From Candidatus Magasanikbacteria bacterium RIFOXYC2_FULL_42_28 (GTDB lineage Bacteria; Patescibacteriota; Patescibacteriia; Magasanikbacterales; GWA2-37-8): 64,000 nt of DNA. Position 1 is the stretch's first letter, and each line of letters starts with the position of its first letter. The stretch covers positions 18,917 through 82,916 of the forward strand of contig MFQZ01000010.1 in NCBI GenBank assembly GCA_001784435.1. Reading direction: 5' to 3'. The notes under the pieces are model-generated. The model did not search any database. It saw only the letters and a program-made list of their open reading frames with translations, and was not told where the DNA came from. Below, piece by piece: positions 1,339 to 62,025 of this stretch. Position numbers and translations under genes: made by a program.

Positions 1339-1345
1339 ATTTTAT

Positions 1346-2643: not shown

Positions 2644-2647
2644 AAAT

Positions 2648-3121
2648 TTAGGCGCGGTGATATTCTTTTATATCTTCTTGTTTAAAAGTTCTTTCGCAGT
2701 AGTGGCATTTAAGTGACACACCCTGTTTATTTTTTTGAGTATGAAAAAGCGAATCCATCGATTCATTATTCGTAATACATTTTGGATTTGGGCAAACCAC
2801 CAGACCGGAAATTATTTCGGATAGTTCCACTTGATATTTTTTTACCACTTTGAAATCTTTAATTATGTTGATTACCGCGCTGGGAGAAAATATCGCGGTT
2901 AAGTTGGCTTTGCTTGGCGTAATTTCCCAATTGGCCAGTTTGATAATATCTTTTTTGCCACTGGTTTTGCTTGGTAGATGCATGCCGATGGTAACAACAT
3001 TGTCGTGATTTTCAACGCCTAAAATTGATAATATTTTTAGGGCCGAGCCGGCTTTGGCATGGTCAATCACCGTGCCGTTTTTAATGGCGGAAACAAGTAG
3101 GGTGCCAGTTTGTTGTATCAT
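2648..3121 (-). CDS. pyrI: aspartate carbamoyltransferase regulatory subunit
   Basis: C-terminal zinc domain CPNPKCITN...LKCHYCERTF. ATG at 3119-3121 (MIQQTG...) one nt after the pyrB stop. The ORF track's longer form overlaps pyrB and is not used. Confidence 0.85.
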   Translation of the reverse strand: MIQQTGTLLVSAIKNGTVIDHAKAGSALKILSILGVENHDNVVTIGMHLPSKTSGKKDIIKLANWEITPSKANLTAIFSPSAVINIIKDFKVVKKYQVELSEIISGLVVCPNPKCITNNESMDSLFHTQKNKQGVSLKCHYCERTFKQEDIKEYHRA

Positions 3122-3122
3122 A

Positions 3123-4043: not shown

Positions 4044-4053
4044 AAATTTGTTT

Positions 4054-4079
4054 AAAAAAAGTCCCGACTGAGTCGGGAC
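4054..4079 (-). promoter_or_regulatory. leader hairpin GTCCCGACTGAGTCGGGAC followed by U7, 11 nt before the pyrB ATG (attenuator-like; copy of the TCCCGAC-TNA-GTCGGGA palindrome)
   Basis: Perfect palindrome at 4061-4079 and an A7 run at 4054-4060 on the plus strand (a U-run on the pyrB sense strand). A possible promoter TTGCAA-17-TACACT lies further upstream on the minus strand (about 4135-4165). Confidence 0.5.
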
Positions 4080-4368
4080 TAAATAATAAATAATGAAAAT
4101 GCCAATCTTTGGCATCGTGAATGGATGTAAAAAAGGTATTGATCATATCGGGATTAGTGTAGCATTTTTGGAGTTGGTTTGCAAATGGATTTTTGGGTTT
4201 ATCCACACCTTATCTTGACAATATTATATAATTATGGCACAATATAACTAAGAAAAAGGCTTTTGGCAGGGGTTTATATATCACAACGTCGAAGGTCTTT
4301 TTTTGTTTTTATTCTTAGCTTCCACAAGAAATTTACAAAGTTGTATTTTGTCAATCATATTTTTTTGT

Positions 4369-5991
4369 TTATTTCATCTTCTCCCGCAACAACTTCTCCG
4401 CCACCACCGGATCCGCCGCCCCTTCGGTCGCTTTCATCACCATTCCTTTTAAAAACTGTAACAGCGGTTCTTTGCCCGCTTTAAATTTGGCTACCTGTTC
4501 GGGATGGGAAGCGATGACGTCGTCCACAATTTTGCCGAGCGCGCCCTCATCACTCATCTGGCCATAGCCCTTTTCTTCCATAATGTGCGTTGGGTCAATA
4601 TCGGTATTGGCATCTAACATTTCATTTAGGATTTTGGCAGCGTTCGTGGAATTAACACGTCCGGTGTAAAACAACGCCAGCAATTCCGAAAAATTTTCTG
4701 CCGATAATTTCAAAATCCGAATATCAATTTTGCGCTCGGCCATGGCACCCATCAATTTGGAGGTGAGCCAGTTACCGGTTAATTTTGCTAATGCTGATTT
4801 TTTATTATCTAAAATCTCCGAAGTAGTTTTTTTATTTTCGGGCTTGCCCGGCGTAGTCCCACTTGGTGGGACGGAGACGGGTAGAGAATGCAACCACTCC
4901 ACCAAATCCGAATAAACATCTTCGGCATAAGTCGCCCAGTGCGGGTCAGTGGCTAAAATCGCGGCGTCGGCATAAGAAAAACCGTATTCTTCGTGAAAGC
5001 GGGCGCGTTTTTGGGCTGGCAATTCCGGTAATTCAATATTACCGGCAATTTTGGCAGGATTAAAGGGTGGAATATCGGGCTCGGGAAAATAGCGATAATC
5101 AGCCGAAGTTTCTTTAATTCTTTGCATGACAGTTTCGCCTTTGTCATCACTCCAACCGCGGGTCTGTTGGGACCAGGCCTCACCTTTTTCAATCATTGCG
5201 GTTTGGCGTTTGATTTCAAAATCAATCGCTTTTTCAACTGCGCGGAAAGAATTAATATTTTTTACTTCCACTTTATTATTCAATTTATAATCACCGATTG
5301 GTTTAATAACCCCGGCTTCATCAACAAATTTTCCGGTTTCTTGCACCGACACATTGGCCTCACAACGCATTTGCCCTTTTTCCATGTCCGCGTTACTTAC
5401 GCCCAAATAGCGGAAAATTGTTTGTAATTCTTGGCAATAGGCCTTGGCTTCTATCCCGCTTTGAATATCCGGGTCGGAGACAATTTCCACGAGCGGGACG
5501 CCAGCGCGATTAAAATCCACGAGGGTTTCCCCCTCCTGCCCGAGGAGGGGCGAGGGGTGGTGGGAGGCGCCGTGGGTTAATTTGGCCGTGTCTTCTTCCA
5601 TGTGGACACGCGTGATGCCGATGCGGGCGGTGTCGCGGTGGTTTTTTGAAGTGATTAAATTTAAAACAATCGCGCCGTGTTCGCCGACCGGTTGATCAAA
5701 TTGGGAAATTTGATATGCTTTTGGCAAATCCGGATAAAAATAATGTTTGCGGTCAAATTTACTTTCGGTAGCGATTTTACAACCCAAAGCAGTGGCAATT
5801 TTAACAATATCGGTAAGAGCAGTGGCGTTTGGCACGGGTAAAGTCCCTGGGTGGGCGAGGCAGACGGGGCAAATGTTAGTGTTAGGCGCGCCGTGGTCCG
5901 GATCATTTTTACACGCGCAAAACATTTTGGATTTGGTTTTCAGTTCCACGTGGATTTCCAGGCCGATGATGGTGGTGTATTTGGGTGTCAT
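4369..5991 (-). CDS. gatB: aspartyl/glutamyl-tRNA amidotransferase subunit B
   Basis: N-terminal YTTIIGLEIHVELKT, NRAGVPLVEIVSDPD, DYRYFPEPDIPP and a C-terminal GatB/YqeY-like tail. Contains a roughly 14-aa GC-rich insertion (ASHHPSPLLGQEGE). Confidence 0.9.
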   Translation of the reverse strand: MTPKYTTIIGLEIHVELKTKSKMFCACKNDPDHGAPNTNICPVCLAHPGTLPVPNATALTDIVKIATALGCKIATESKFDRKHYFYPDLPKAYQISQFDQPVGEHGAIVLNLITSKNHRDTARIGITRVHMEEDTAKLTHGASHHPSPLLGQEGETLVDFNRAGVPLVEIVSDPDIQSGIEAKAYCQELQTIFRYLGVSNADMEKGQMRCEANVSVQETGKFVDEAGVIKPIGDYKLNNKVEVKNINSFRAVEKAIDFEIKRQTAMIEKGEAWSQQTRGWSDDKGETVMQRIKETSADYRYFPEPDIPPFNPAKIAGNIELPELPAQKRARFHEEYGFSYADAAILATDPHWATYAEDVYSDLVEWLHSLPVSVPPSGTTPGKPENKKTTSEILDNKKSALAKLTGNWLTSKLMGAMAERKIDIRILKLSAENFSELLALFYTGRVNSTNAAKILNEMLDANTDIDPTHIMEEKGYGQMSDEGALGKIVDDVIASHPEQVAKFKAGKEPLLQFLKGMVMKATEGAADPVVAEKLLREKMK

Positions 5992-6061
5992 ATTTTAATT
6001 AAAAACTGGCAGATTATTTCTACCAGTTTAACAGTTTTAGGAAGTTTTGGCAAATTTATTT

Positions 6062-6814
6062 TTAGACAGTGGGAGGGATAGAGTTGACCGGGTTGGCCTT
6101 TAAATTTTCGTATAAAATCAGGCCGGTGGCGATTAATAATGGTAATATTAAAAGTCCAATTATCCGATCAGCAAAACCATTGGCAATTTGCAACTGGATG
6201 ATACTGATATCCGGAAACCAAAATATTATTTGCTTTATAAGCCATTGTAAAAATCCGCCGATGACGGTAAATAATACCGTGGGGGCAAGTAGGCGCCAGA
6301 GTACGGCCCACCAGCGGTTGGTCGCCAGATTTTTGCTCATTTTCATGGCGGTCGTTCCTCGTTCGCCGTCAGCCACGAGCGCATATAAACTAAAATGATA
6401 CCAAACCATGAAAATTATTCCCGGGATAACAAACAATAATGCCCCAACCAAAGTGATTAGTCCGGTTAGAAAAGAAATCCATATTGCCGGTAATATTATT
6501 TTTCCGGCCAGATTTAAGTTGTTCTTAACGCCGGCGATAGGGGCGTTTTTTATAATTTGATCAAAAGTTTTAATCAGCCCGAGGTAAGCCCAAAATGATA
6601 CTAATAATCCAATTAGATATAGCATGGCTAAAATTATATCATCCCAAGTAACGTTGGTAATGGAATTTACCTCCAAACTGATAGTCGCGAACGCGAGCAT
6701 CGCCAAAATAACGGCGGGCGCGAGTGAAATGATTAGATATGCCCAGATCTGTTTAAAATGTTTCAAATACAACGCGGTGCTTTGTTTAATTATGTCGGTG
6801 GTGCTAATAAGCAT
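6062..6814 (-). CDS. polytopic membrane protein, unknown function
   Basis: 250 aa with at least six hydrophobic helices and no recognisable catalytic motif. Confidence 0.5.
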   Translation of the reverse strand: MLISTTDIIKQSTALYLKHFKQIWAYLIISLAPAVILAMLAFATISLEVNSITNVTWDDIILAMLYLIGLLVSFWAYLGLIKTFDQIIKNAPIAGVKNNLNLAGKIILPAIWISFLTGLITLVGALLFVIPGIIFMVWYHFSLYALVADGERGTTAMKMSKNLATNRWWAVLWRLLAPTVLFTVIGGFLQWLIKQIIFWFPDISIIQLQIANGFADRIIGLLILPLLIATGLILYENLKANPVNSIPPTV

Positions 6815-6819
6815 ACGAT

Positions 6820-7524
6820 TTAAGTTAAAATTTGTTTTAGAAGCGCGGTGGCCTCTGCTTTCATTATACCAATTTTTGCGTTTCCGTTCAACTGGTGGAT
6901 GGCTGTGCCACGCTTTATAAAAATTTTTTTAAGTTCAGTCCCAAAAAATTGGCGGTGAGATTTTTTTAAAAATGGCAGGTTTTCAAAAATTACGTTATCT
7001 TGTTTTTGCGCTCGGCCGGATAATCTTTGGGCCGAAGTGGTCGGATTGGTTTTTACTAAAATTAAATGGTCAGGGCGATGGGTTAGCGCCAAATTATTCC
7101 CGGGCAGAGCCGATATTTTTTTCATGGTGAAATTTTTGTGGGCTAGCGATTGGTAGGCGAGCGAGGTGGAGATACCGCGGTCTTGGATAATTACTCGGCC
7201 GTCTTTAAGCAAAGGAATAATAATTTTGGTGTAGAGAATTAAACGATCGAGCGCGTAGGCCTCGGCCACGGCTTCAACCGGGTAGGTCGTGCCGTTTTTG
7301 ATAAGTTCATCTCGAATTACCGCGCCTACGCCGGCGTAAGTTGGCTCGGCCGAAAAAATAAAATCATAGCCGTTAAGTTCGGATAATTTTGGGTATTCTC
7401 CGGTTTTTTTTAAATATTCTTTTAAATCAAAAATCGCGTTGCCTTGAGCAACTAAATATTTTTTCCAAGTTTCAATAACAGTGCTTTTGCCAGAGCCGTC
7501 GATGCCGTCAATCAATATTAACAT
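6820..7524 (-). CDS. tmk: thymidylate kinase
   Basis: P-loop LILIDGIDGSGKST, and DRGISTSLAYQS matching the dTMP kinase DRYxxSSLAYQG lid motif. Confidence 0.75.
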   Translation of the reverse strand: MLILIDGIDGSGKSTVIETWKKYLVAQGNAIFDLKEYLKKTGEYPKLSELNGYDFIFSAEPTYAGVGAVIRDELIKNGTTYPVEAVAEAYALDRLILYTKIIIPLLKDGRVIIQDRGISTSLAYQSLAHKNFTMKKISALPGNNLALTHRPDHLILVKTNPTTSAQRLSGRAQKQDNVIFENLPFLKKSHRQFFGTELKKIFIKRGTAIHQLNGNAKIGIMKAEATALLKQILT

Positions 7525-7530
7525 ATTGAA

Positions 7531-7628
7531 AATTCTAAGTTCTAAACTCTAAATTCTAATCGATTTGAATTTGTAATTTTAATATTTGGGTTTGTTTAGA
7601 TTTTAGTATTTAGAGTTTAGAGTTTCTC
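7531..7628. repeat. palindromic heptamer-based spacer (TTTAGAG/TTCTAAA family), copy 1
   Basis: aattctaagttctaaactctaaattctaat ... tttgtttagattttagtatttagagtttagagttt: two arms built of 7-mer repeats in inverted orientation. It extends a few nt into the folA 3-prime end. Confidence 0.7.
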
Positions 7629-8092
7629 GTATATATCACAAAATCAAAACCAGCGTGTGGTTCGCGGGCAATTTCTTTCCAAAGCGCGGGATTAATTATT
7701 GGAAAGAAGGTGTCGCCATCCGGAGATTGGTGGACGTGAGTAATATATAATGTATCCACGCGGTCAATTGTTTGTTTGTAAATACTCGCGCCACCACAGA
7801 TAAATACATCTTCGTTTTTTAATTGCGCGAAAGCGTCATCAAGCGAATTAAAGACGCGTACGCCGTCTGGCACTTGGTAATCTTTGTTTAAAGTCAGCAC
7901 CACTGTTTTTCGTCCTGGCAATGGCTTGCCTAAGTATCCTAAAATTGATTCATAAGTGGCTTGTCCCATTAAACAAGTTTTTCCCAAAGTGGTTTTTTTA
8001 AAAAACGCAAAATCTTCCGGAATATTCCACGGGATTTTGTTGTTTTTGCCAATGCAGTTATTGTCGGCGACGGCGGAAATGAGAGAGAACAT
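7610..8092 (-). CDS. folA: dihydrofolate reductase
   Basis: MFSLISAVADNNCIGKNNKIPWNIPEDFAFFKKTTLGKTCLMGQATYESI is the canonical DHFR N-terminus. ATG at 8090-8092. The ORF-track extension MEIGNLDFEIIN is translation of repeat copy B. Confidence 0.9.
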   Translation of the reverse strand: MFSLISAVADNNCIGKNNKIPWNIPEDFAFFKKTTLGKTCLMGQATYESILGYLGKPLPGRKTVVLTLNKDYQVPDGVRVFNSLDDAFAQLKNEDVFICGGASIYKQTIDRVDTLYITHVHQSPDGDTFFPIINPALWKEIAREPHAGFDFVIYTRNSKL

Positions 8093-8097
8093 GTTGA

Positions 8098-8212
8098 TAA
8101 TTTCAAAATCCAAATTTCCAATTTCCAATCAATGTCAAAGCCAAAATGTCAAATTTGATATTTGTAATTTGGATTTGATTTGACATTGGATATTGGAAAT
8201 TTGACATTTATT
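8098..8212. repeat. palindromic MITE-like element, copy B (family P1)
   Basis: aaatttccaatttccaatcaatgtcaaagccaaaatgtcaaatttgata...tttgacattggatattggaaatttgacattt. Sits between the thyA stop and the folA start. Confidence 0.85.
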
Positions 8213-8221
8213 TAGTAAATT

Positions 8222-9094
8222 TTAAACAGCAATTGGGAATGAGATTTTAGGATGGCTCTGATAACTCATCAATTCCGTATCCCCATATTGCCAATCAAAA
8301 ATATTCGTGAATTTTTCGGTTTTAATCTGGGGCAGGGGATAGGTATTTGGGTCGCGGGTAAGTTGTTCGCGTACGCCGTCAACATGATTTAAATATATAT
8401 GGGCATCTGCCAAAAAGCCGACCAATTTTCCTTCTTTTAAATTACATTCTTTGGCTAGTAAATGTAAAAGCAAAGCATAGCTTGAAATATTAAACGGCAA
8501 ACCAAGCATCGTGTCTACCGAGCGTTGATTCCAGAGTAAATTTAGTCGGCCGTTGATTACCGTCACTTGAAAACCATAATGGCAGGGTGGCAGAGCCATT
8601 TCACCAATTTGACAGGGGTTCCAAGCCATCACAATCATCCGACGATCGCTCGGATTGGTTTTAATAGTTTCAATTAATTTTTTTAATTGGTCAACACCGG
8701 TATCAGCATAATTGGAATCAAAATTTTCGTAAGGCGCGTTAAAATGTCGCCATTGAAAACCGTAAATCGGACCCAAATCGCGTTCGGCTGCCATTTTTTG
8801 TTTGGTGGCTTCGTCGTGGGCGTAAGGTACTTTTTTAGGTGAGCACCATTCATCCCAAATATGGCAGTTTTTGGCTTTGAGCCACTCTTTGTCCGTCAGG
8901 CCTTTGATAAAAAACTCCAATTCCGCGGCCATTACTTTAAATGGCATTTTTTTGGTTGTTAAAAGCGGATAACCGGTCGCCATGTCATGTTCAAAATACG
9001 CGCCGGCAATCGCGAGCGTGCCGGTGCCGGTGCGGTCGGTTTTGGTTTCGCCTTTTTCCAAAACGGTTTTGACGATGTTTAAATAGGATTGCAT
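8222..9094 (-). CDS. thyA: thymidylate synthase (ThyA type)
   Basis: MQSYLNIVKTVLEKGETKTDRTGTGT, HLLAKECN and the long-insert ThyA form. ATG at 9092-9094. The upstream extension translates the GTTCATAGCCAATAG repeat. Confidence 0.9.
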   Translation of the reverse strand: MQSYLNIVKTVLEKGETKTDRTGTGTLAIAGAYFEHDMATGYPLLTTKKMPFKVMAAELEFFIKGLTDKEWLKAKNCHIWDEWCSPKKVPYAHDEATKQKMAAERDLGPIYGFQWRHFNAPYENFDSNYADTGVDQLKKLIETIKTNPSDRRMIVMAWNPCQIGEMALPPCHYGFQVTVINGRLNLLWNQRSVDTMLGLPFNISSYALLLHLLAKECNLKEGKLVGFLADAHIYLNHVDGVREQLTRDPNTYPLPQIKTEKFTNIFDWQYGDTELMSYQSHPKISFPIAV

Positions 9095-9100
9095 ATTTTT

Positions 9101-9131
9101 TAGTTCATAGCCAATAGTTCTTAGCCAATAG
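9101..9131. repeat. GTTCATAGCCAATAG-family repeat
   Basis: tagttcatagccaatagttcttagccaatag, immediately upstream of the thyA start. Confidence 0.7.
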
Positions 9132-9148
9132 GACAGCGACAAGTTTGT

Positions 9149-9571
9149 TTATTTTCCCGTACTGCCAAAACTGCCTAGTCCACGTTGGGCTTCGGTTAAT
9201 TCATTTACTTCTTGCAGTTCGGCAATAGCAACAGGATAAATTATCAGTTGGGCGATTTTGTGGCCGGTTTCAATTTTATATGGTTCTTGTCCTAAATTTA
9301 TTAGTTGCACATTGTATTCACCACGATAACCAGCATCAAATACCCCGCCCATCGTATGGATGCCGCCGTTTTTTGGCAATGAACTTTTATCTTTCACAAT
9401 CGCCGCGTAGCCGGTCTCAAATTCCAGAGCAAATCCGACAAAAAATATTTTTCTCTCGCCCGGTTGCAAATTATAATCTTCCAAAGAATATAAATCCATA
9501 CCCACATCGCCCGGGTGGGCATAAGTGGGGAGGATAGCGTCGGGTTTTAGCCGTTTAATTTTAATTTGCAT
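9149..9571 (-). CDS. dut: dUTP diphosphatase
   Basis: AHPGDVGMDLYS and GGVFDAGYRGE dUTPase motifs. 140 aa. Confidence 0.85.
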   Translation of the reverse strand: MQIKIKRLKPDAILPTYAHPGDVGMDLYSLEDYNLQPGERKIFFVGFALEFETGYAAIVKDKSSLPKNGGIHTMGGVFDAGYRGEYNVQLINLGQEPYKIETGHKIAQLIIYPVAIAELQEVNELTEAQRGLGSFGSTGK

Positions 9572-10115
9572 ATTTTTTAACCAATGCGTCCAGCTGGGCG
9601 TGTAAATTTTCCATGGTGCCGTTATTATTGATGTGTTCGATCGCGTACTTTACCACGTCTAAAATACTTAATTCCGTAGAGCGTTTGTGGTCTTCTAAAA
9701 ATTGTTCGTAAGTTTTGGTGTTGTCGTCTGAATTTTCACCACGTTTTATCAGTCGCTCGTAGCGAGTTTCTGGTTCGGCAAAAATTTCTATTAAGACAAA
9801 ATTTGGTAATTGTGATAAATATTCAATATCAGCCATTCGACGGATTCCTTCCACCACCACTAAATTATTGGTAGCGGCTTGCGCGTCGCCGGCAATGGCT
9901 TTGGCCAAGGTATTTTCACCAAAAGTTGTGCGGATACATTCCGACATTTTAATCAAAAAATCACGCGATTGTTCCAGATAAATGCGATTTAGCAGGTCGC
10001 GCAAAATTGTGGAATAGCGGAAAGTATCGGCTTGATATTTTGTTTCTAAATATTTTGCCACCGTGCCCTTACCGCTTGATAGTAATCCGGTAAATCCTAA
10101 AATTATTTTATTCAT
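9561..10115 (-). CDS. P-loop nucleotide kinase, possibly a deoxynucleoside monophosphate kinase
   Basis: N-terminal Walker A ILGFTGLLSSGKGT, about 184 aa. It resembles T4 gp1-type dNMP kinases and sits inside the dTMP synthesis cluster. Specificity not established. Confidence 0.45.
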   Translation of the reverse strand: MNKIILGFTGLLSSGKGTVAKYLETKYQADTFRYSTILRDLLNRIYLEQSRDFLIKMSECIRTTFGENTLAKAIAGDAQAATNNLVVVEGIRRMADIEYLSQLPNFVLIEIFAEPETRYERLIKRGENSDDNTKTYEQFLEDHKRSTELSILDVVKYAIEHINNNGTMENLHAQLDALVKKYAN

Positions 10116-10121
10116 AAATTT

Positions 10122-10592
10122 TCACTTAGCCCAATCCGATACATACTGCCGGCATTTAATCCCGGCGGCGTCAAATAACCGACGGGCGGCGGTAAATGCG
10201 TCCACGTCGTGGTATTTATCACTTTCATAAATCACTTCTACTACCCCGTTTTGAATAATGGTTTTGGCGCACTCATTGCAGGGGAATAAGCAGGAATAAA
10301 CACGCCCGCCTTTGACTGACATGTTGGCGTTGTAAATCGCGTTTTCTTCGGCGTGGCACATATAGGCGTACTTGGTGTTCAAAAACGCGCCTTCACGCTC
10401 CCAAGGCAATTGATCAGCCTCAATACCGCGCGGGAAGCCGTTATAGCCCATACCTAAAACGACGTTATTTTTATCTACGACTATCGAGCCGACTTGTGAG
10501 GAAGGGTCCTTGGAGCGCTCGGCAATCACATGCGTCATGCGCATAAAACATTCGTCCCAGGAGATCGTATTTTCGCGAGGAGTAATAGGCAT
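10122..10592 (-). CDS. dCMP deaminase (cytidine/deoxycytidylate deaminase zinc-binding family)
   Basis: HAEENAI ... CLFPCNECAK zinc-ligand pattern. 156 aa. Confidence 0.8.
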   Translation of the reverse strand: MPITPRENTISWDECFMRMTHVIAERSKDPSSQVGSIVVDKNNVVLGMGYNGFPRGIEADQLPWEREGAFLNTKYAYMCHAEENAIYNANMSVKGGRVYSCLFPCNECAKTIIQNGVVEVIYESDKYHDVDAFTAARRLFDAAGIKCRQYVSDWAK

Positions 10593-10627
10593 ATATTTTA
10601 ATTAATTCAATACCGAAATTGTATCAA

Positions 10628-10660
10628 AAAACCGCGCCTTGGGCAAGGGGCGGTTTTAAG
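10628..10660 (-). terminator. intrinsic terminator after the PEP-utilizing-domain gene
   Basis: Minus-strand hairpin CCGCCCCTTG/CAAGGCGCGG followed by TTTTTTG. Confidence 0.6.
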
Positions 10661-10672
10661 TTGATAAATTTG

Positions 10673-11800
10673 TCAATGTTGTTGTAATATTTTTACAAAA
10701 CCTTTGTTGGCGTCTACTTCGATCATTTGGCCAGTCTTAATTTTTTTGGTAGCACCCTTAACACGTATTAGGGATGGCTTATTCAATTCTCTGCAAATTA
10801 TCGCCGCATGGCACAAGATTGTTCCTCGTTCCATAATTATTGCCCCTGCTTTTTTTATATATGGAATATATTCTAAAGTTGGCATGGTGCAAACCAAAAT
10901 TTCGCCTTTTTGGAATGATGGTACTTTCGTCCCGTTTACTATTCGAGCTTTTCCGATATATTTTCCGCTATTAGCAGATATGCCCTTGATTATCTTTGCT
11001 GGCTTTTTGCGGGTAAGAATGGTTGCTTTAGTGGCTTGCCAGATATCAAATTTCGCCAGGGTTCTGCCCTGAATGCGATTGTAATCGATGAATCTTATTT
11101 TATCCCCCGGCCAGACCATAAATTCAAAATAACCGCGTAGGTATTTGCGACTGTTAAAAGACGAACCCAATTGTTCTTTCAGTTGGCTGCGAGTTTTAGC
11201 ATGGGTAACTTTTAATGCCTGTACGGCCTTTTTTATAATTTTGATCGCGTATTTGTTATGTTTAGAAAAAATCCAGTTAGTGAAATTACTTGAAAAAAAG
11301 ATCGGCATTTTTTGACAATTCCCGATGCTAAGGCCACTAAGTCGTCCTTCGTTAATTTCTCCCCAAATGCCGTTGTTATTGATAATAAAAATAGCGGATA
11401 GTTTAATAATTTTAGAGCGAGGTCGTATTTCTACCCAATACTTATCTTCATCTAATTTTTTGTTTTTAAGCCAATTAATTGCATTATGAGTATTACGCCC
11501 GCTTAGCCGCAACTTTGGCAATCTTTGGTTTTTTGGTATGGCACGCAACATACACTGTTGGTTGCCCATATTGTTTACGGTATCTTTAAATAATGGTGTG
11601 CGTTCGTTGATGTCGCGCAGTGTCATTTTTTCTGGTTTGTCATAGGGTAAATTTATGAGTATATGCAATAAATCTAGACGATGACGTTTGGAGTTGTCTT
11701 CTATAAGCATACGTCTGCCGTTCGGTACTTGAATTTTTTTTAGCCATTCCGTAAACGGCGGCCAGGCATTTTTTTGAAGTTTTTGGTTGGAGTAAATCAT
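10673..11800 (-). CDS. PEP-utilizing enzyme mobile (phosphohistidine) domain protein with an uncharacterised roughly 230-aa N-terminal region
   Basis: C-terminal GTILCHAAIICRELNKPSLIRV matches the GGxTSHAAIxAREluP phosphohistidine motif of PPDK, PEP synthase and Bacillus-type pyruvate kinase. The start lies 3 nt after the pyk stop. Confidence 0.65.
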   Translation of the reverse strand: MIYSNQKLQKNAWPPFTEWLKKIQVPNGRRMLIEDNSKRHRLDLLHILINLPYDKPEKMTLRDINERTPLFKDTVNNMGNQQCMLRAIPKNQRLPKLRLSGRNTHNAINWLKNKKLDEDKYWVEIRPRSKIIKLSAIFIINNNGIWGEINEGRLSGLSIGNCQKMPIFFSSNFTNWIFSKHNKYAIKIIKKAVQALKVTHAKTRSQLKEQLGSSFNSRKYLRGYFEFMVWPGDKIRFIDYNRIQGRTLAKFDIWQATKATILTRKKPAKIIKGISANSGKYIGKARIVNGTKVPSFQKGEILVCTMPTLEYIPYIKKAGAIIMERGTILCHAAIICRELNKPSLIRVKGATKKIKTGQMIEVDANKGFVKILQQH

Positions 11801-11803
11801 AGC

Positions 11804-12850
11804 TTAATTGGTAACAGTAAGATGATTGGCCAATTTTGCTTGGTATTTTTCCACTTCATTAATAATTTTTTTGGCAGTTGCAATGGTATAAGCGGCTCGC
11901 TTGTTCAGTCCAGTTTCATAGCCAAAAATTATTCCGGCGGCACCGTCTAGTACAATGTTGGTTAAGTCGCAGATATCCGCGCGGGTAGGTATATAGTTAT
12001 GAATGGTGCTGGCCAGAATGTGGGTAGATATTAGAATTGGTTTAGAAAATTTTTTAGCGCGAGACATTATCTGTTTTTGCAGTAAGCCGATTTTTTCAAA
12101 TGGCATGTTGACGCCCATCTCTCCGCGATCGATCAGTATCATATCAAAAAAATTATCTTGACAAATAGCGTTGAGTTCTTCGGCAGTAATATTTTTTTCT
12201 ATTTTTATGATGTATTTGAGTCGATTAGTTTTAGGTGGAAATAGCAGTTTTATTTTTTCGATAAACGATTTGCTAATATATGAACAAGCGAGATAGTCGG
12301 GGTGCAGACCGTTAATTTGCTCCAAAGTTTTTTTATAAATTTCAACCATGTAATCTTCGTCATAGATAGCGTAGTTATTACCCAAATTTACAGTTTTGGA
12401 ATTTCTTATGATGCCACTATTGATTATTTGGATTTTTACGATATCAGACGATATGATGTCTTTTATTTGTACTGTAACTTCCCCGTCTCCGATTGCAATT
12501 ATTTGCCCCAGCGATACTTTTGAGCCGATGTGCGGGATATTTAATGGTATGAATTCAAGACAATCCGGAGAGTAATCAGCGGAACGTAAGATAAGTTCGC
12601 TCCCTTCTTGTACCGGGAAAGTCTGACCTTCAAAAAATCCTAGGCGATGTTTATTAAGTGGAAAATCAATAAATTTTTTAACGGACGCATTTAAACTATC
12701 GATAACCTTTTCCGCTTTTTGAACCGATTCGATGTAGTTGTCGATGGAACGGTGAGACAAATTAAATCGCAATACATCCGCTCCGGTTAGGATCATTTTA
12801 ATTATTTGTTCTTCGGTAATGTTGTGACCGACAGAAGCAATTATCAACAT
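11804..12850 (-). CDS. pyk: pyruvate kinase, short form (no C-terminal allosteric domain)
   Basis: IIASVGHNITEEQIIKMILTGADVLRFNLSH ... MILIDRGEMGVNMPFEKIGLLQKQI ... PTRADICDLTNIVLDGAAGIIFGYETG matches the PK catalytic-core signatures. 348 aa. Confidence 0.8.
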   Translation of the reverse strand: MLIIASVGHNITEEQIIKMILTGADVLRFNLSHRSIDNYIESVQKAEKVIDSLNASVKKFIDFPLNKHRLGFFEGQTFPVQEGSELILRSADYSPDCLEFIPLNIPHIGSKVSLGQIIAIGDGEVTVQIKDIISSDIVKIQIINSGIIRNSKTVNLGNNYAIYDEDYMVEIYKKTLEQINGLHPDYLACSYISKSFIEKIKLLFPPKTNRLKYIIKIEKNITAEELNAICQDNFFDMILIDRGEMGVNMPFEKIGLLQKQIMSRAKKFSKPILISTHILASTIHNYIPTRADICDLTNIVLDGAAGIIFGYETGLNKRAAYTIATAKKIINEVEKYQAKLANHLTVTN

Positions 12851-20923: not shown

Positions 20924-21011
20924 AGCGCAATCTGTCAAGACCCGACGCTTAGCGTCGGTAATGGGACGCTGAGCGTCCCCCTTGACAGATTTTTTATTTG
21001 TGATATAATCA
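20924..21011 (+). promoter_or_regulatory. nested-hairpin terminator-like structure overlapping the rpsA promoter (TTGACA at 20982-20987, TATAAT at 21004-21009)
   Basis: Outer inverted repeat AATCTGTCAAG...CTTGACAGATT encloses two inner hairpins, GACGCTTAGCGTC and GGACGCTGAGCGTCC. The -35 hexamer is the 3-prime arm of the outer stem. Confidence 0.5.
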
Positions 21012-21098
21012 TTTCAGATTTAATTAAGCCCTTTTGGGCACTCGGCTCCCGATTTAATCGGGACGGGCTAAGCGCGTTTTTTTTGTTCTATAAATTAT

Positions 21099-22307
21099 AT
21101 GACTTTAAGTGACAAGACCAGTGTAAAGCCGGATTTTAAAACATTACTGCAAGACAACCCGATTAATTTTCCCAAAGTGGGGGATTTGGTTAAGGGTAAG
21201 GTATTGTCTGTGGACAAAGGCGAAATTCACGTTGATATTGAAGGATTGACCACCGGTGTGGTGCGGGGCGCGGAGTTGTTCGCGGAATCGCGCGAGCATG
21301 CTAATTTGAAAGTAGGCGACGAAGTGGAAGCGACGGTTACGGAAATGGAAAATGAAAATGGAGAATTGGAATTGTCGTTCCGCATCGCCGGTTTTCAACG
21401 CGCTTGGGATGCTGTTAAGAAATGGATGAAAGACGGCTTGACCATTAAAGCCAAAATTACCGGCGCTAACAAGGGAGGGCTCATGATGCAAGTAGAGGCC
21501 CTGGCCGGTTTTATGCCGGTATCGCAATTGTCTCCGGAAAATTACCCGCGCGTGGCCGGTGGGGACAAAAATCGTATTTTTGAAAAATTACAAGAATTGA
21601 TTGGCACTGATATGGAGGTTAAAGTAATTGACGCTGATGAAAAAGATGAAAAATTAATCGTGTCCGCGCGCGCGGTGTGGGAAGACAGCCAAAAAGCGGT
21701 ATTGGATTCTTACAAAGTGGGCGATACGGTGGACGGTGAAGTAAGCGCCCTGACATCATTTGGCGCGTTCTTGAAATTTGGCGAGGGCTTAGAAGGGTTG
21801 GTTCATATTTCCGAAATTGCTTGGCAGAGAATTGAACACCCGCGCGATTTGTTAAAAGTAGGAGACAGAGTCAAGGCCAAAATTATTCAATTGGATAAAT
21901 CCAAAATTTATTTGTCGTTGAAACGGTTAGTAGATGATCCGTGGAAACAGGTGGCGGAGAAATATAAAGTGGGCGACAAGGTAAAAGGAAAAATTATTAA
22001 AATTGAAGCGTTCGGTCTCATGGTCGCGCTTGATCAGAATATTCATGGTTTGGCGCATGTGTCGGAATTGTCCGACGCGCCTTTGGCCAATGTCGCTGAC
22101 AAATTTAAAATCAACCAAGAAGTGGAATTTGAAATCGTCAATATTGAGGCGATTGAACACCGCTTGGGTTTGCGCGTGGCCGGAGTAAAAGGAAAAGCGC
22201 CGAAAGCGCCAAAGGCGAAAAAGGGTGAAAAGAGCGAAAAAGCCGAAGAGACGCCCGAGGCCAAAGCGGAAACGAAATCGGAGTTAGAAGAAAAAAAGGC
22301 CGAGTAA
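21099..22307 (+). CDS. rpsA: 30S ribosomal protein S1 (four S1 domains, Lys/Glu-rich tail)
   Basis: Repeated S1-domain pattern GDLVKGKVLSVDKGEIHVDI, GDTVDGEVSALTSFGAFLKF..GLVHISEIAW and GDKVKGKIIKIEAFGLMVAL..HGLAHVSEL. Confidence 0.85.
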   Translation: MTLSDKTSVKPDFKTLLQDNPINFPKVGDLVKGKVLSVDKGEIHVDIEGLTTGVVRGAELFAESREHANLKVGDEVEATVTEMENENGELELSFRIAGFQRAWDAVKKWMKDGLTIKAKITGANKGGLMMQVEALAGFMPVSQLSPENYPRVAGGDKNRIFEKLQELIGTDMEVKVIDADEKDEKLIVSARAVWEDSQKAVLDSYKVGDTVDGEVSALTSFGAFLKFGEGLEGLVHISEIAWQRIEHPRDLLKVGDRVKAKIIQLDKSKIYLSLKRLVDDPWKQVAEKYKVGDKVKGKIIKIEAFGLMVALDQNIHGLAHVSELSDAPLANVADKFKINQEVEFEIVNIEAIEHRLGLRVAGVKGKAPKAPKAKKGEKSEKAEETPEAKAETKSELEEKKAE

Positions 22308-28352: not shown

Positions 28353-28432
28353 TAGTTCATAGCCAATAGGGTGGGCGAGCGATTCGTTGTCTCCCCCTGC
28401 CCGAGGGGGAGAATAAGAGGGGGTGGGAGCGG
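28353..28432. repeat. composite repeat: GTTCATAGCCAATAG unit plus GC-rich hairpin family H2 (CTCCCCCTGCCCGAGGGGGAG-AATAAGAGGGGGTGGGAGCGG)
   Basis: The H2 unit recurs in-frame in gatB at 5527-5572. Confidence 0.7.
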
Positions 28433-28443
28433 TCGTTCGTCAT

Positions 28444-28471
28444 TGACAAAAAAGCATAGGCGTTTTATAAT
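28444..28471 (+). promoter_or_regulatory. near-consensus sigma-70-type promoter TTGACA-16-TATAAT driving the ncRNA candidate
   Basis: ttgacaaaaaagcataggcgttttataat. Confidence 0.6.
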
Positions 28472-28478
28472 GTATTTA

Positions 28479-28663
28479 TGGTGATTGGAACGGCTACCAA
28501 CCGTTACCCCGTAAGGGATCTCGACTAAGTCGTGGCTAAGCCAAATAAAAGTTAAACATTCGGGTGGAACCGTCAATTGTCATTGCGAGAAGGCCGTAGG
28601 CCGACGAAGCAATCTTTCAAACCATTGACCCCGATACCTATTTTTAGGTATGGGGGTATTTTT
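28479..28663 (+). ncRNA. small structured RNA candidate, about 185 nt, bounded by promoter and intrinsic terminator; possible SRP (4.5S)-like domain IV, but the identity is uncertain
   Basis: Contains GAGAAGGCCGUAGGCCGACGAAGCAAUC (compare the SRP helix-8 AGG...GGAAGCAG pattern) and ends with the CCCCGAUACCUA-loop-UAGGUAUGGGGG hairpin plus U7. No ORF. Confidence 0.4.
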
Positions 28664-28740
28664 TTAGAAAAAAGTATATATTCAAGTATATACGGGAATA
28701 TATATTTAAATATATACTTAAATAATGATAGGCGAAATTT

Positions 28741-37181: not shown

Positions 37182-37245
37182 GAACCCCGAATTTTGTTCA
37201 CGAATCAACACGAACAATCTTAAAATACGGCTAATAGTATTGGCT

Positions 37246-37275
37246 CTTGACAAATATTTAATTTTCTGGTAAAGT
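37246..37275 (+). promoter_or_regulatory. internal promoter (TTGACA-17-TAAAGT) inside the 360-nt rpsJ-rplC spacer, giving rplC a long structured leader
   Basis: ttgacaaatatttaattttctggtaaagt. The leader ends with the palindrome TCCCGACTTAGTCGGGA (37526-37542), 2 nt before the rplC ATG. Confidence 0.45.
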
Positions 37276-37544
37276 GCTGACAACATTACCGACGTTAAAG
37301 TAAATAAGATTTGTTTCGGAATTTTCGAGGCAAAAAACATTTATTCGAACGAAAGTAATTTTGAGGAAATAAAGTGATTTAAAAATTTACAATTGGCCAA
37401 TCTTGATCACAAGAAAGGCTGGAAACGTGAATTGCAAACAGTATTTTTAGGGGGGAATTATCAGTAATTTAGACAGATTAGTTTGCAGTTAGCGTTTCTA
37501 GTTTTTTTGTTAAATTAACGGTTAATCCCGACTTAGTCGGGACA

Positions 37545-38255
37545 ATGACACGTATGAAAATAATTATTGGGAAAAAAATTGCCATGACCCAGGTGTTTTC
37601 AGCGACGGGCGAAGTGGTGCCGGTTACGCGCATTAGTGCCGGTCCTTGCCCAGTTGTTCAAGTTAAAACCAAAGGGACTGATAATACCGACGCCATTCAG
37701 TTAGGATTTGGCGAAAAGAAAGAGTATTTGATAAAAAAACCGCAGTTAGGTCATTTGAAAGATTTGTCTAATTTACGTGATTTACATGATTTTTCGGTTG
37801 ATAAAGTGGGAGAAGTAAAGCGCGGTGATTTGGTTACCGTCGATACTTTTGTTGAGGGTGAAAGAGTGGCGGTGGTGGGACAGTCCAAAGGTAAAGGTTT
37901 TCAAGGTGTGGTTCGCCGTCATCATTTCCGTGGTGGCCCAGCGACGCATGGTCATAAAGACAATTTGCGCGCTCCCGGATCCATTGGCGCTGGTGGTGTG
38001 CAACGCGTTTTTAAAGGTATGCGTATGGCCGGTCATATGGGCGCGGATAGAGTTACTGTCAAAAATTTAGAAGTGGTTAAAATTGATTCCGTTAATAATG
38101 AGTTATATTTAAAAGGCGCTGTTCCGGGTGGACGTGGGGGGTTGTTATTTATTAGTGCCCCGGGCGAGTTGAAAGTGGCGGTAACCAAAGTAGCCGAAGT
38201 TCCAGTCGTGGCCGAGCAACCGGCAGTAGAAATGGTTGCCGAAGCGCAATCCTAA
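37545..38255 (+). CDS. rplC: 50S ribosomal protein L3
   Basis: KIIIGKKIAMTQVFSATGEVVPVTRISAGPCPVVQVKT. Confidence 0.9.
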   Translation: MTRMKIIIGKKIAMTQVFSATGEVVPVTRISAGPCPVVQVKTKGTDNTDAIQLGFGEKKEYLIKKPQLGHLKDLSNLRDLHDFSVDKVGEVKRGDLVTVDTFVEGERVAVVGQSKGKGFQGVVRRHHFRGGPATHGHKDNLRAPGSIGAGGVQRVFKGMRMAGHMGADRVTVKNLEVVKIDSVNNELYLKGAVPGGRGGLLFISAPGELKVAVTKVAEVPVVAEQPAVEMVAEAQS

Positions 38256-41065: not shown

Positions 41066-41102
41066 TTATTTAGTATTTAGTGTTTAGAATTTAGTGTTTA
41101 AA
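41066..41102. repeat. heptamer-based spacer repeat (TTTAGTG/TTTAGAA family), copy 2
   Basis: atttagtatttagtgtttagaatttagtgtttaaaaa, between rplV and rpsC. Confidence 0.65.
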
Positions 41103-48885: not shown

Positions 48886-48925
48886 AATTTGTTTAGGATT
48901 TAGTGTTTAGAATTTAGAGTTTATT
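48886..48925. repeat. heptamer-based spacer repeat, copy 3
   Basis: aatttgtttaggatttagtgtttagaatttagagtttatt, between adk and map. Confidence 0.65.
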
Positions 48926-49745: not shown

Positions 49746-50129
49746 ATGAATATTCTCGCTCTTGATTATGGACAAAAAAATATCGGTTTGGCGTGGTGTG
49801 ATACCGGCATTGGCGCGCCATTGCCGTTTGGGGTTATTAAGGGTGGAGATTTTGCCGAATTAGTAAAAGTTATTAAAACCGAAAATATCGATAAAGTAAT
49901 TATTGGTTTGCCTTTGGGAATGGACGGTAAAGAAAAAGCCAATACGGCGCGCGTGCGTGAATTTGGCGAGCAATTAAAAAAACAAATTACCGCGTCGGTA
50001 GAATTTTTTGATGAGCGGTTTTCTTCGCAACAAGCGGACCGCAGTGAAGGAGGAGTATCAAGAGACGAGAAGTCGGCGATGATTATTTTAGAAAGCTATT
50101 TAGCCAGTGTAAAAAATTCCAAACTCTAA
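49746..50129 (+). CDS. ruvX: YqgF/RuvX Holliday-junction-resolvase-like putative pre-16S rRNA nuclease
   Basis: MNILALDYGQKNIGLAWCD...KVIIGLPLGMDGKE. RNase H-like fold motifs. ATG at 49746. Confidence 0.75.
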   Translation: MNILALDYGQKNIGLAWCDTGIGAPLPFGVIKGGDFAELVKVIKTENIDKVIIGLPLGMDGKEKANTARVREFGEQLKKQITASVEFFDERFSSQQADRSEGGVSRDEKSAMIILESYLASVKNSKL

Positions 50130-50242
50130 ATACTAAACTCTAAACAAATCCAAATGTTTTAAACTCAAAGTTTTGTTCATTTGAATTTAAAGTTTTGAAC
50201 TTGTTTAGAATTTAGGGTTTAGTATTTAGTGTTTTATGTTGT
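50121..50242. repeat. long palindromic heptamer-array spacer (copy 4): CTAAATACTAAACTCTAAACAAATCCAAA ... TTTGAACTTGTTTAGAATTTAGGGTTTAGTATTTAG
   Basis: The two arms are reverse complements built from TTTAGAG/TTTAGTA/TTTAGAA 7-mers. Lies between ruvX and recO. Confidence 0.7.
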
Positions 50243-59904: not shown

Positions 59905-61323
59905 TCAATTTTGGGCGGAAATTGGTCGCAATTGTCCGCTAAAGTAGATACTGCCGGTGACTAGCAAAATGTCGCCTGTGTTGAGGGTTTTGTGGATGGT
60001 TTTGTAGGCCTGGATGGGGTTTGGAGATGTTTTGATTTTGGTTTTTGGACAGTCAATTTTGAATAGTTTTGTAAGTTCATTTGGGCTGATTGCCGGTCGC
60101 GCGCCTGGGGCGGTCGTTTGGGAGCAGGTGATGGATATTGGTTTTAGAGTTGATAATTGTTTGACCATTTGTTTGATATTTTTGTCAGCGGAAAAGCCTA
60201 CTAATAGATGCAATGGTCTGTTTTGGCGAAGTTGTTTTAAAGTCGCGACCGTGGTTTTCATTTTATCCGGATTATGCGCGCCGTCTAGAATTATTAACGG
60301 ATTTTTGTGGACAATTTCAAAACGCAGTGGTTGTTTGGCATTTGCCAATCCTTTTTTAATCGCGCTGTCTTTTATTTTTAACGCACGTGCAATTTTAATA
60401 CATAAAATTGCATTGATTATTTGATGTTCGCCCGGGGCGGTTAAAGTGTAGGTTTGATTTTTGTATTTAAAGGTGGTGCTGTATTCGTCAACACCATTTG
60501 TCATCCCGAGCGAGGCTCGCGCCGACGAGGGATCTCCATTAGCGACCGATTGGGATGGAGATTCCTCACATTCGTTCGGAATGACAGGTGAGTGTCGTAA
60601 AATTTGGTAACGCGGTTTATTTATCGTAAATAATTTTGTATTGGTTAGTTTACATTCTTTTTTAATTATTTTTAAGATTTTCGGATCGGTTTCGGCCGTG
60701 AATACTTTGCATCCGGTTTTAATAATGCCAGATTTTTCATAAGCGATTTCTGATTTGTTGTTGCCGATAATTCCAACATGATCCAGTCCGATATTTGTAA
60801 TGACCGCGATATCTTTGTGGGGAATAATATTGCTGGAATCATACCGTCCACCCGCGCCGACCTCGGTTACTAGCCACTCCACTTTTTTATCAGCAAAATA
60901 TTTTAATCCCAGCGCTTCGGTAAATTCAAATAATGATAAATTATCGTAGGGTGTTTTTTTAGTGTAGATTTTATATTTATTTTTTAACCAATTTACCAAA
61001 AACGCAAATTCAGCACGCGAAATTTCGCGGTTGTTAATTTTCCAACGCTCGGTAATGTAGGTCGGGTGTGGGGAAGTGGATAGGCCAACGCGTTTACCCG
61101 AAGCAACTAAAATTGATTGTAAATAAGTCGCGACCGAGCCCTTGCCACTTGTGCCAGTGATATGAATATAATGGGGGATTTTACGTTCGGGATTGCCGAT
61201 TAAATCCAAAAAAAATTGCAGACGTTTTAAATACCAGTCGCAATGATTAGAGTCGGTCAAATATTCTTTGCGTGGGAGTTTGGCAAAATCCAGTAAGAAT
61301 TGTTCGGCTTCTTTGAAGTTCAT
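59905..61323 (-). CDS. folC: folylpolyglutamate synthase / dihydrofolate synthase (Mur ligase family), carrying an in-frame roughly 30-aa repeat-derived insertion
   Basis: ITGTSGKGSVATYL P-loop, VGLSTSPH, EVGAGGRYDSSNII. Insertion RHSPVIPNECEESPSQSVANGDPSSARASLGMTNG is encoded by hairpin repeats. Confidence 0.8.
   Translation of the reverse strand: MNFKEAEQFLLDFAKLPRKEYLTDSNHCDWYLKRLQFFLDLIGNPERKIPHYIHITGTSGKGSVATYLQSILVASGKRVGLSTSPHPTYITERWKINNREISRAEFAFLVNWLKNKYKIYTKKTPYDNLSLFEFTEALGLKYFADKKVEWLVTEVGAGGRYDSSNIIPHKDIAVITNIGLDHVGIIGNNKSEIAYEKSGIIKTGCKVFTAETDPKILKIIKKECKLTNTKLFTINKPRYQILRHSPVIPNECEESPSQSVANGDPSSARASLGMTNGVDEYSTTFKYKNQTYTLTAPGEHQIINAILCIKIARALKIKDSAIKKGLANAKQPLRFEIVHKNPLIILDGAHNPDKMKTTVATLKQLRQNRPLHLLVGFSADKNIKQMVKQLSTLKPISITCSQTTAPGARPAISPNELTKLFKIDCPKTKIKTSPNPIQAYKTIHKTLNTGDILLVTGSIYFSGQLRPISAQN
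60499..60586. repeat. tandem inverted pair of family-H1 GC-rich hairpin repeats located inside the folC reading frame
   Basis: tgtcatcccgagcgaggctcgcgccgacgagggatctcc ... ggagattcctcacattcgttcggaatgaca. Confidence 0.7.
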
Positions 61324-61335
61324 ACCAAAATTAAA

Positions 61336-61358
61336 CCATCCCGACTTAGTCGGGATGG
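61336..61358. promoter_or_regulatory. palindrome CCATCCCGACTTAGTCGGGATGG 12 nt upstream of the folC ATG
   Basis: Same TCCCGAC-TNA-GTCGGGA core as at 4061-4079, 37526-37542 and (variant) 21047-21063. Confidence 0.6.
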
Positions 61359-61365
61359 ATTTTTT

Positions 61366-62025
61366 CTATTGTTTTTTTGTGGCTATTTCCGGCAGTTCCA
61401 ACGCCCATTTTTTTGTAGCCAATTCCAGTAATTTTTTACCGGCTAAATAGGTGAGCATGATGCCAATAGCCATTAAGCCGCGTTCTTTCCAGACCACTGG
61501 AATAAGTCCAATCCAGGCCACGGCCGGCAATTTTATAATGTAGGCAAATAGCACTCCACCGACAGCATGGGCGGTAAAAGTGGCGCCGAGCGCGCGGGCG
61601 ATGACAAATTTATCATGCCAAAAATAGGCGACCATTGGAATAAGCCAATACAAAGCGTAATACCAGGCCTCTCGTCCTTCTGGCGTTGCCCAAAATCCGA
61701 TCATTGCCACGGCTGGCACAAGTAAAATCGCACGGCTTTTTTTGGCAAAATATAGGGTGGCGAAAAGCATCGGGAACAGGCGGATGAGTGTGCCGGCGCT
61801 CGCGTCAAAGCCGTGTATGGCCCAGTTGACGAGTTGCATCACAAGCACGACGAGCACGCCCCAGATTGAACCCAAAAACGCGCCCATCACCGGCCCGTAA
61901 AAATCAAATAAAGTGAATTTTAAATTAACACCGACCATTTTGGTGAATGGTATTTGCATGATGATAAGGCCGAGGGCGATTAGGATGGCGAGGAGGAGAT
62001 TGTGTTTGATGTTTTTGGTGAACAT
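61366..62025 (-). CDS. small polytopic membrane protein, possible substrate-capture (ECF S-component-like) protein
   Basis: 219 aa, six predicted TM helices. Co-directional and adjacent to folC. The function is an inference from size and context only. Confidence 0.35.
   Translation of the reverse strand: MFTKNIKHNLLLAILIALGLIIMQIPFTKMVGVNLKFTLFDFYGPVMGAFLGSIWGVLVVLVMQLVNWAIHGFDASAGTLIRLFPMLFATLYFAKKSRAILLVPAVAMIGFWATPEGREAWYYALYWLIPMVAYFWHDKFVIARALGATFTAHAVGGVLFAYIIKLPAVAWIGLIPVVWKERGLMAIGIMLTYLAGKKLLELATKKWALELPEIATKKQ

Follow-up and report, generated by a model that had tools for sequence, protein, structure and literature searches.

The palindrome TCCCGAYTNARTCGGGA occurs four times in the window (the whole 64-kb stretch of Magasanikbacteria DNA analysed here), and we hold it somewhat probable that the four copies form a lineage-specific family of cis-acting RNA stem-loops, spread or descended in the manner of REP elements, rather than the regulon of one regulator. 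At the level of sequence, the repeat is demonstrably real, intergenic, proximal to start codons and transcribed in sense, with its pairing kept by compensation. The same comparisons establish that the motif sequence is not conserved past the nearest relative. For the individual copies, we infer roles in termination, attenuation, insulation and stabilisation, together with a mode of spread.

Copy number and placement of the palindrome

The initial annotation had described a palindrome that recurs ahead of pyrB, rpsA, rplC and folC, and our scan of the window bears this out: TCCCGAYTNARTCGGGA has four exact matches (4062-4078, 21047-21063, 37526-37542 and 61339-61355), where 0.00 were expected from 100 dinucleotide-preserving shuffles. 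Raising the tolerance to <=3 mismatches added one extra, doubtful site at 28519-28535. These five sites are:

4060-4080 (core 4062-4078), minus strand: copy 1, AGTCCCGAC-T-N-A-GTCGGGACT, a 21-nt perfect palindrome, centre written TCA or TGA
21047-21063, plus strand: copy 2, the variant TCCCGAT-TTA-ATCGGGA
37526-37542, plus strand: copy 3, TCCCGAC-TTA-GTCGGGA
61336-61358, minus strand: copy 4, CCATCCCGAC-T-N-A-GTCGGGATGG, a 23-nt perfect palindrome, centre written TAA or TTA
28519-28535, plus strand: possible decayed fifth copy, TCTCGACTAAGTCGTGG, 3 mismatches, of doubtful membership

A further 10 kb of sequence on either side of the window holds 0 additional copies; the readable span of the source genome for copy counts is thereby ~84 kb out of at least 255 kb. 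That genome is Candidatus Magasanikbacteria bacterium RIFOXYC2_FULL_42_28, whose ThrRS, S1 and L3 proteins (on a contig of 254.8 kb) match those of the window at 100% identity. The half-sites TCCCGAC and TCCCGAT occur at chance frequency away from the palindromes. Therefore, the repeated unit is the palindrome and not the 7-mer word. The centre reads T-N-A in all four copies, and since the loop is invariably T-N-A, the architecture of the palindrome is 8-1-8. Two copies are symmetrical over a longer stretch, copy 1 over 21 nt (4060-4080) and copy 4 over 23 nt (61336-61358), and their extensions beyond the core use unrelated bases; the flanks of the four copies have nothing in common.

Intergenic DNA makes up 9.3% of the window and contains all four copies (P ~7.5e-5). 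The prospect, raised in the initial annotation as fatal to its reading, that the motif might be just as frequent inside genes did not materialise within the window. Given intergenic placement, all four copies lie at the start-proximal end of their spacer (P ~0.02), a proximity that the same annotation had proposed to examine and that we assessed within the window only. The downstream gene is co-directional in each case and the hairpin-to-start distance ranges from 11 to 35 nt (pyrB, 16 nt; rpsA, 35 nt; rplC, 11 nt from the likely start; folC, 12 nt). Copies 1-3 lie 130-345 nt past the upstream stop and 11-35 nt ahead of the next start.

Uptake sequences are always over-represented as single half-sites. 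Our motif resembles the Neisseria DUS and Haemophilus USS pairs in presenting a short inverted sequence as a terminator-like hairpin, and dprA adjoins, but its half-site is not over-represented by itself; a DNA uptake sequence was rejected because the half-sites occur at chance frequency.

The degenerate fifth copy sits within a segment (28444-28665) that consists of a promoter-like TTGACA-17-TATAAT, a GC-richer stretch of ~190 nt and a hairpin with a T-run, with a GNAT gene downstream. Judged by this layout, 28444-28665 could be a small RNA or riboswitch that has escaped annotation; no Rfam family matches it.

RNA hairpin or double-stranded DNA site

The space between each copy and its ATG is too short for a promoter. 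Therefore, transcription of each downstream gene has to run across its hairpin. In every leader the hairpin dominates the predicted local folding, with z of about -4 to -4.7 for three of the four. An alignment of 14 instances, drawn from the window and other Magasanikbacteria, gave a covariation score of 0.174 vs 0.103 in shuffles, and flank pairing likewise exceeded the shuffles; the observed values were reached by 2-5 of 500 shuffles (2 for covariation). Copy 2 differs from the other copies by one compensated pair (C-G to U-A). At the position of copy 3, the nearest relative (L212; 83% L3 identity, from the same sample as L208) carries TCCCGAT-TTA-GTCGGGA, a variant with a U.G wobble that can form in the sense strand only. 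On these comparisons, an RNA hairpin is favoured over a double-stranded operator for the four copies. Both options had been put forward in the initial annotation. The stem extensions, the compensatory pairs and the sense-strand U.G wobble support the folding aspect of the first; the unrelated bases of those extensions, the compensatory pairs and the wobble speak against an operator for a dimeric DNA-binding protein, as does the scarcity of strong promoter-like sites, with copy 2 alone close to one.

More generally, a double-stranded DNA site, be it bound by a dimeric transcription factor as its operator or by ParB as a non-canonical parS-type site close to parAB, predicts neither unrelated-base extensions past the core, nor concerted changes of the two half-sites, nor the asymmetric T..G variant of L212, which is a wobble in sense RNA only. 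Solitary half-sites are not enriched, copies 1, 3 and 4 are distant from promoter-like sites or lack them, and the same sequence tips a 16S rRNA helix of a relative. We consider such a site unlikely, while acknowledging what it would account for: a symmetry that is perfect through the loop ends, with T-N-A in four of four copies and in a further pair of palindromes at 20942-20979; the presence of parA and parB in a window where canonical parS was not found; and the location of copy 2 just past a consensus promoter. The loop-end complementarity (T..A, giving 8-1-8), which an RNA hairpin does not need, hints at a constraint or an origin at the DNA level.

Several other identities were tried and rejected. 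Canonical parS is absent from the window, and the palindrome differs from the 16-bp TGTTNCACGTGAAACA-type site in sequence and in its odd length. A tRNA-derived element or known RNA family was dismissed, since the window has one tRNA only and Rfam gave nothing at gathering score, with sub-threshold generic hairpin matches in the leaders. A restriction-modification effect was considered on account of the scarcity of CTNAG in the window (49 observed vs 78 expected); this scarcity is uninformative because embedded stop codons predict it.

The initial annotation had also suggested that the hairpin masks ribosome-binding sites. This suggestion fails on the composition of ~69 gene upstream regions, which are AT-rich and contain almost no GGAGG-like sequence: since the genes are practically without Shine-Dalgarno (SD) sequences, SD masking is inapplicable. 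The window contains no rRNA of this genome; a related Magasanikbacterium (L022) retains CCUCC at its 16S 3' end.

The RNA family that we propose would thus comprise near-identical GC-rich hairpins with a 7-10 bp stem and a U-N-A triloop, each placed directly 5' of an AU-rich, SD-less initiation region in a transcribed intergenic leader.

The hairpin in its four leaders

Copy 1 lies 16 nt ahead of the pyrB ATG (4043), at the head of an eight-gene pyr operon, and is followed immediately by U7 (4053-4059) on the coding (minus) strand. By Pfam, pyrB (3123-4043, minus strand) encodes a carbamoyltransferase of the aspartate type and PyrI comes next; the full gene order is pyrB, pyrI, pyrC, a second carbamoyltransferase, pyrD, pyrK, a phosphoribosyltransferase and pyrF. 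The terminator scan accepted copy 1 on the minus strand, with a 9-bp stem and U7, and the hairpin is the centroid fold of the predicted leader structure (z = -4.7). Because the stem is joined to U7, and because transcription must cross the hairpin to reach pyrB, copy 1 is built like an attenuator. The earlier remark that the pyrB copy resembles an attenuator terminator therefore appears sound, given the 9-bp stem with U7 predicted 16 nt ahead of the ATG. At the pyr operon, the module would act as an intrinsic terminator or attenuator.

In a pyrBI-type attenuator, a promoter and a U-rich pause region precede a terminator that lies close to pyrB and is crossed by a translated leader ORF. Copy 1 is like the E. 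coli pyrBI attenuator in that a GC-rich stem and U7 follow a U-rich tract directly upstream of pyrB; unlike the E. coli system, it has no separate leader peptide, as the sole upstream ORF shares the pyrB frame; nor did we find an alternative antiterminator pairing at copy 1. A PyrR element was sought in 4020-4400, with no Rfam match at gathering score or at E <= 10, and the promoter matches ahead of pyrB are weak (9/12). TCCCGAT at 4147-4153, near the pyr promoter, was tried as an alternative pairing partner and rejected: it occurs at chance frequency and may be outside the transcript.

Some side observations concern the same region. An ATG at 4115 (minus strand, 4041-4115) is in the pyrB frame and reads across the hairpin; it is itself buried in the stem of a second hairpin (4098-4116). 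Public gene calls for pyrB disagree, giving 306 aa vs 330 aa. In the window (391-12850) and in locus L122, the pyrimidine and thymidylate gene set is unusually complete for a Candidate Phyla Radiation (CPR) bacterium and occupies one region, in which the eight-gene pyr cluster (pyrB to pyrF, with two carbamoyltransferase paralogues) is accompanied by tmk, folA, thyA, dut and dCMP deaminase.

Copy 4 fills a 42-nt spacer between a 219-aa gene of unknown function (stop 61366-61368) and a folC-like gene (ATG 61323), beginning 7 nt past the upstream stop codon. The downstream gene (59905-61323, minus strand) is a Mur-ligase by Pfam and FolC-like. Copy 4 passes the terminator scan on both strands and, like intrinsic terminators, forms a bidirectional terminator-like hairpin; copies 2 and 3 are unlike intrinsic terminators, whose GC-rich stem (loop of 3-8 nt) has a U-rich tract within 0-2 nt, in having no adjoining U-tract. 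In its spacer, copy 4 may serve as a bidirectional intercistronic hairpin that ends or protects the upstream message and limits read-through into folC.

Copies 2 and 3 belong to two larger leaders, and the former lies close to the pair of palindromes mentioned above:

20942-20979, plus strand: tandem 17-nt perfect palindromes, CCGACGC-TTA-GCGTCGG and GGGACGC-TGA-GCGTCCC
20982-21098, plus strand: rpsA promoter (extended -10) and leader, with TTGACA-16-TGnTATAAT, P1, CACUCGGC, P2, CGGGMUAAGMGC (CGGGAUAAGAGC) and a U7-8 run
37247-37553, plus strand: leader in the S10-L3 spacer, with a promoter-like site at 37247-37275 and blocks GTAAATAAGAT...AAAACATTTAT

Copy 2 is helix P2 of the conserved rpsA 5' leader, where CUCG/CGGG lengthens the stem (to about 21041-21067). 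It lies at ~+31 of the transcript predicted from a 12/12 consensus promoter and 35 nt ahead of the ATG (21099) of a gene, 21099-22307, that encodes S1 by Pfam. A U8 run (21077-21084) begins 14 nt past the stem, and copy 2 fails the terminator scan because this U-tract is not adjacent to the stem. The leader is kept in relatives with S1 identities of 91%, 82% and 80% (loci L208-L211). P2 reads CCCCGAC-TTA-GTCGGGG in L208, with the inner 15 nt the same as in copies 3 and 4; it reads TCTGCC-TTATC-GGCGGA in L209 and is a longer, unrelated stem in L210. Across four sequences, RNAalifold identified compensatory changes at five P2 pairs, which supplies the covariation in orthologous leaders that the initial annotation had named as a check. 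Going by this alignment, the P2 helix is conserved and its sequence is not. The rpsA leader has no match in Rfam and is a candidate S1 autoregulatory leader, in which the module would act as helix P2.

Copy 3 precedes the gene for L3 (37545-38255 by Pfam); the S10 gene upstream is also confirmed by Pfam. The hairpin ends 2 nt from the first in-frame ATG (37545) and 11 nt from a second at 37554. Because homologues align from residue 4, the likely rplC start is 37554 and not 37545. The initial annotation had taken 37545 as the start and placed copy 3 where a Shine-Dalgarno sequence would sit, a view contradicted both by this alignment and by the lack of SD sequences in these genes. Copy 3 fails the terminator scan, its U-tract being absent. 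It occupies a variable stretch that separates a long terminator-like hairpin with U7 (37420-37505, plus strand) from the rplC start, and its extended predicted pairing runs up to the base preceding the ATG.

The S10-L3 leader around it is conserved in at least six relatives, with L125-L127, L212 and L213 sharing the long-spacer form seen at 37182-37553; the S10-L3 spacer measures 150-410 nt in the closest clade vs 10-40 nt in more distant relatives. The stems of its terminator differ among relatives yet remain complementary (GAAACG/CGTTTC, GAAGCC/GGCTTC and GGAGCGG/CCGCTTC), and they are followed by T6-7 and then GTTAA. This leader, too, is without a match in Rfam. Located between rpsJ and rplC and bearing covarying terminator-like stems, it is a candidate ribosomal-protein attenuator leader of the L4/L3 type, and the module at rplC would stand between this conserved attenuator and the start codon.

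As helices in conserved, structured ribosomal-protein leaders, copies 2 and 3 recall the autoregulation of the E. coli S10 leader by L4 and of rpsA by S1, and the rplC leader, like known ribosomal-protein leaders, bears a terminator-like hairpin with covarying stems. In contrast to the E. coli S10 leader, it is located between rpsJ and rplC and not upstream of rpsJ; in contrast to E. coli ribosomal-protein leaders more generally, the motif hairpin is the least conserved part of each leader, and neither leader matches Rfam. At least two conserved ribosomal-protein leaders of this Magasanikbacterium are thus missing from Rfam.

Since copies 2 and 3 have no U-tract adjoining the stem, no single biochemical role suits all four copies. 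A common benefit might be that a stable hairpin closes off or insulates upstream structure before an unstructured, SD-less start. In any case, an SD-less Magasanikbacterium puts a re-used, stable hairpin immediately before its initiation regions.

Relatives, repeat families and the question of a regulon

The nearest relative keeps the motif at both its rpsA and its rplC sites, and the next relatives have other hairpins or none. The position of copy 3 holds a different, shorter hairpin in L213 (CTCC-AAATA-GGAG) and unrelated hairpins in L125, L127 and L129, with no hairpin found at this position in L126, L131 and L136. Around rplC, 80 L3-relative metagenome loci (630 kb) contain 0 copies of the motif, as do three ThrRS-relative loci (59 kb) in which synteny is lost. 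At locus L033, which is syntenic with window positions 4369-9100, the motif precedes gatB; the corresponding place in the window holds a weak hairpin of unrelated sequence.

In species-representative genomes, the palindrome was found at at least 118 loci from many phyla. Among the matches listed, it makes up a terminator, forms a tRNA arm or caps RNase P P12, and 21% lie in long ORFs vs 80% of random positions. Eight of the at least 118 listed loci come from seven Magasanikbacteria MAGs, a share that is suggestive of enrichment in this group among the matches listed. Of the Magasanikbacteria sites listed, some follow stop codons and have A- and T-runs, and others separate convergent genes, cap a 16S expansion or belong to a 16S-tRNA spacer; their listed neighbours (rpoD, a HAD hydrolase, an exonuclease and unknowns) have no functional theme. 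Because the palindrome occupies unrelated sites in other Magasanikbacteria, these data argue against a conserved regulon. The growth-rate or nucleotide-linked regulon of the initial annotation thus loses its footing as a conserved entity: 0 copies occur in the 630 kb from 80 relatives and in the further 59 kb, relatives past the nearest have other hairpins or none at rpsA and rplC, and elsewhere the motif accompanies unrelated genes and rRNA.

A regulon confined to the species is a separate matter. Here, one trans-acting protein or RNA would bind CCCGAY-UNA-RUCGGG and co-regulate initiation at, or read-through into, the pyr operon, folC, rpsA and the L3 operon. It is the sequence, and not structure alone, that is the same at the four leaders and at both sites of the nearest relative; every copy is 11-35 nt from a start codon, and the extended pairing predicted for copy 3 touches the base before the ATG. 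No copy, the nearest relative's two included, departs from the CCCGA core or the U..A loop ends, and this invariance could reflect recognition by a sequence-specific factor. We nevertheless regard such a regulon as rather unlikely, given that the SD to be masked is missing, that relatives with equally conserved leaders carry another hairpin or none, that other Magasanikbacteria have the motif beside unrelated genes, in rRNA and behind stop codons, and that a helix-turn-helix or other candidate regulator gene was not found in the window. The more specific proposal, that this exact stem-loop is recognised by a dedicated RNA-binding factor or by 30S/S1 and coordinates S1, the L3 operon and the pyrimidine and folate genes, seems to us less likely still. 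To our knowledge, almost nothing is known of gene regulation in CPR bacteria. Should the hairpin prove a shared control element, it would open a way into the study of post-transcriptional control in CPR bacteria; should the factor-recognition reading hold, an uncultivated CPR lineage would have a post-transcriptional regulon at the level of the species.

The reading of the copies as a REP-like family draws on other features of the window. The tandem palindromes at 20942-20979 match the architecture of the motif, with a 7-bp stem and a C-TNA-G centre. They sit past the stop codon of the preceding gene and ahead of the rpsA promoter. Together with the four copies, they make up the six GC-rich perfect T-N-A triloop hairpins of the 64-kb window; elsewhere, two such palindromes occur in 222 kb of close relatives and one in 506 kb of distant relatives. 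The pair is missing from L208 in otherwise alignable sequence, an indel of ~32 bp. A second dispersed family consists of tandem TTTAGNR heptamers, with 18 matches vs 0.07 expected, on five other spacers. Given the excess of palindromes, the indel at 20942-20979 and the second heptamer family, the genome accumulates short intergenic repeats. As for the machinery of spread, we saw no target-site duplication, and neither a transposase nor a RAYT among ~40 domain-scanned window proteins and the flanking loci; the mechanism of spread is therefore unsupported.

Another possibility is convergence, in which the copies would be ordinary terminators of separate origin whose stems coincide, and no family at all. 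In its favour, the palindrome is found across many phyla in terminators, tRNA arms or RNase P P12 tips, and 21% of listed public genome matches are in long ORFs vs 80% of random positions. Against it stand the identity of four 15-17-nt cores within 64 kb, where 0 were expected, and the stems of the remaining terminator-like hairpins of the window, which are unrelated to the motif; the 35 matching stretches of a viral collection contain one copy apiece, and copies 2 and 3 are not terminators. We regard convergence as very unlikely. A phage origin was rejected on the same viral matches, one copy apiece in 35 stretches.

Comparison with known repeats places the proposed stem-loop family close to the REP/BIME elements of Enterobacteria and Pseudomonas and similar small dispersed palindromes. 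Like them, the motif is short, palindromic and GC-rich, recurs in intergenic DNA that is transcribed, and is capable of forming a terminator or mRNA-end hairpin; it also shares their species-specific, patchy presence, the indels between relatives and the variation at orthologous sites (rplC, rpsA and gatB). REP elements are found mainly at gene 3' ends and have a GTAG-type tetranucleotide flank. Unlike them, our motif is perfect, only 17-23 nt long with a 3-nt loop, single and not clustered, low in density (4 in ~84 kb) and on the 5' side of genes; a GTAG-type tetranucleotide does not flank it, and the readable sequence showed no RAYT. In the scenario that we prefer, a small palindromic module would have been inherited and have spread, REP-like, within the species and its nearest relative; the palindrome would be older than the split from the SRR22387921 organism and be decaying or replaced elsewhere. 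If the copies are merely a REP-like module, they document the dynamics of small palindromic repeats in very small genomes, and they caution against reading regulons out of repeated palindromes.

A number of minor observations concern these repeats and their counterparts. The two tandem palindromes at 20942-20979 have a common core, GACGCT-N-AGCGTC, with the outer pairs swapped from C-G to G-C. The TTTAGNR arrays at 7529-7626, 41069-41100, 48892-48923 and 50113-50235 lie just ahead of start codons, some of them as inverted pairs, and similar TAAAGTC-type heptamer arrays are present within insertions of the 16S rRNA gene in L022. Two further hairpins, CCCCTCCT-GCCCG-AGGAGGGG (5530-5550) and TCTCCCCCT-GCCCG-AGGGGGAGA (28390-28412), have alike stems and a common GCCCG loop; the former is inside gatB. 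The 16S rRNA gene of L022 (1862-3700) has several insertions, one of which is a long AU-rich helix tipped by TCCCGAC-TGA-GTCGGGA, and a second copy is located in the spacer past the 16S 3' end. Finally, in L043 (Ignavibacteriae), L056 (Patescibacteria) and L079 (Bacteroidales), the palindrome lies within conserved flanks, GGGUGAAA...GGUAAGAG, which resemble the P10-P12 region of RNase P RNA, the palindrome corresponding to the tip of P12.
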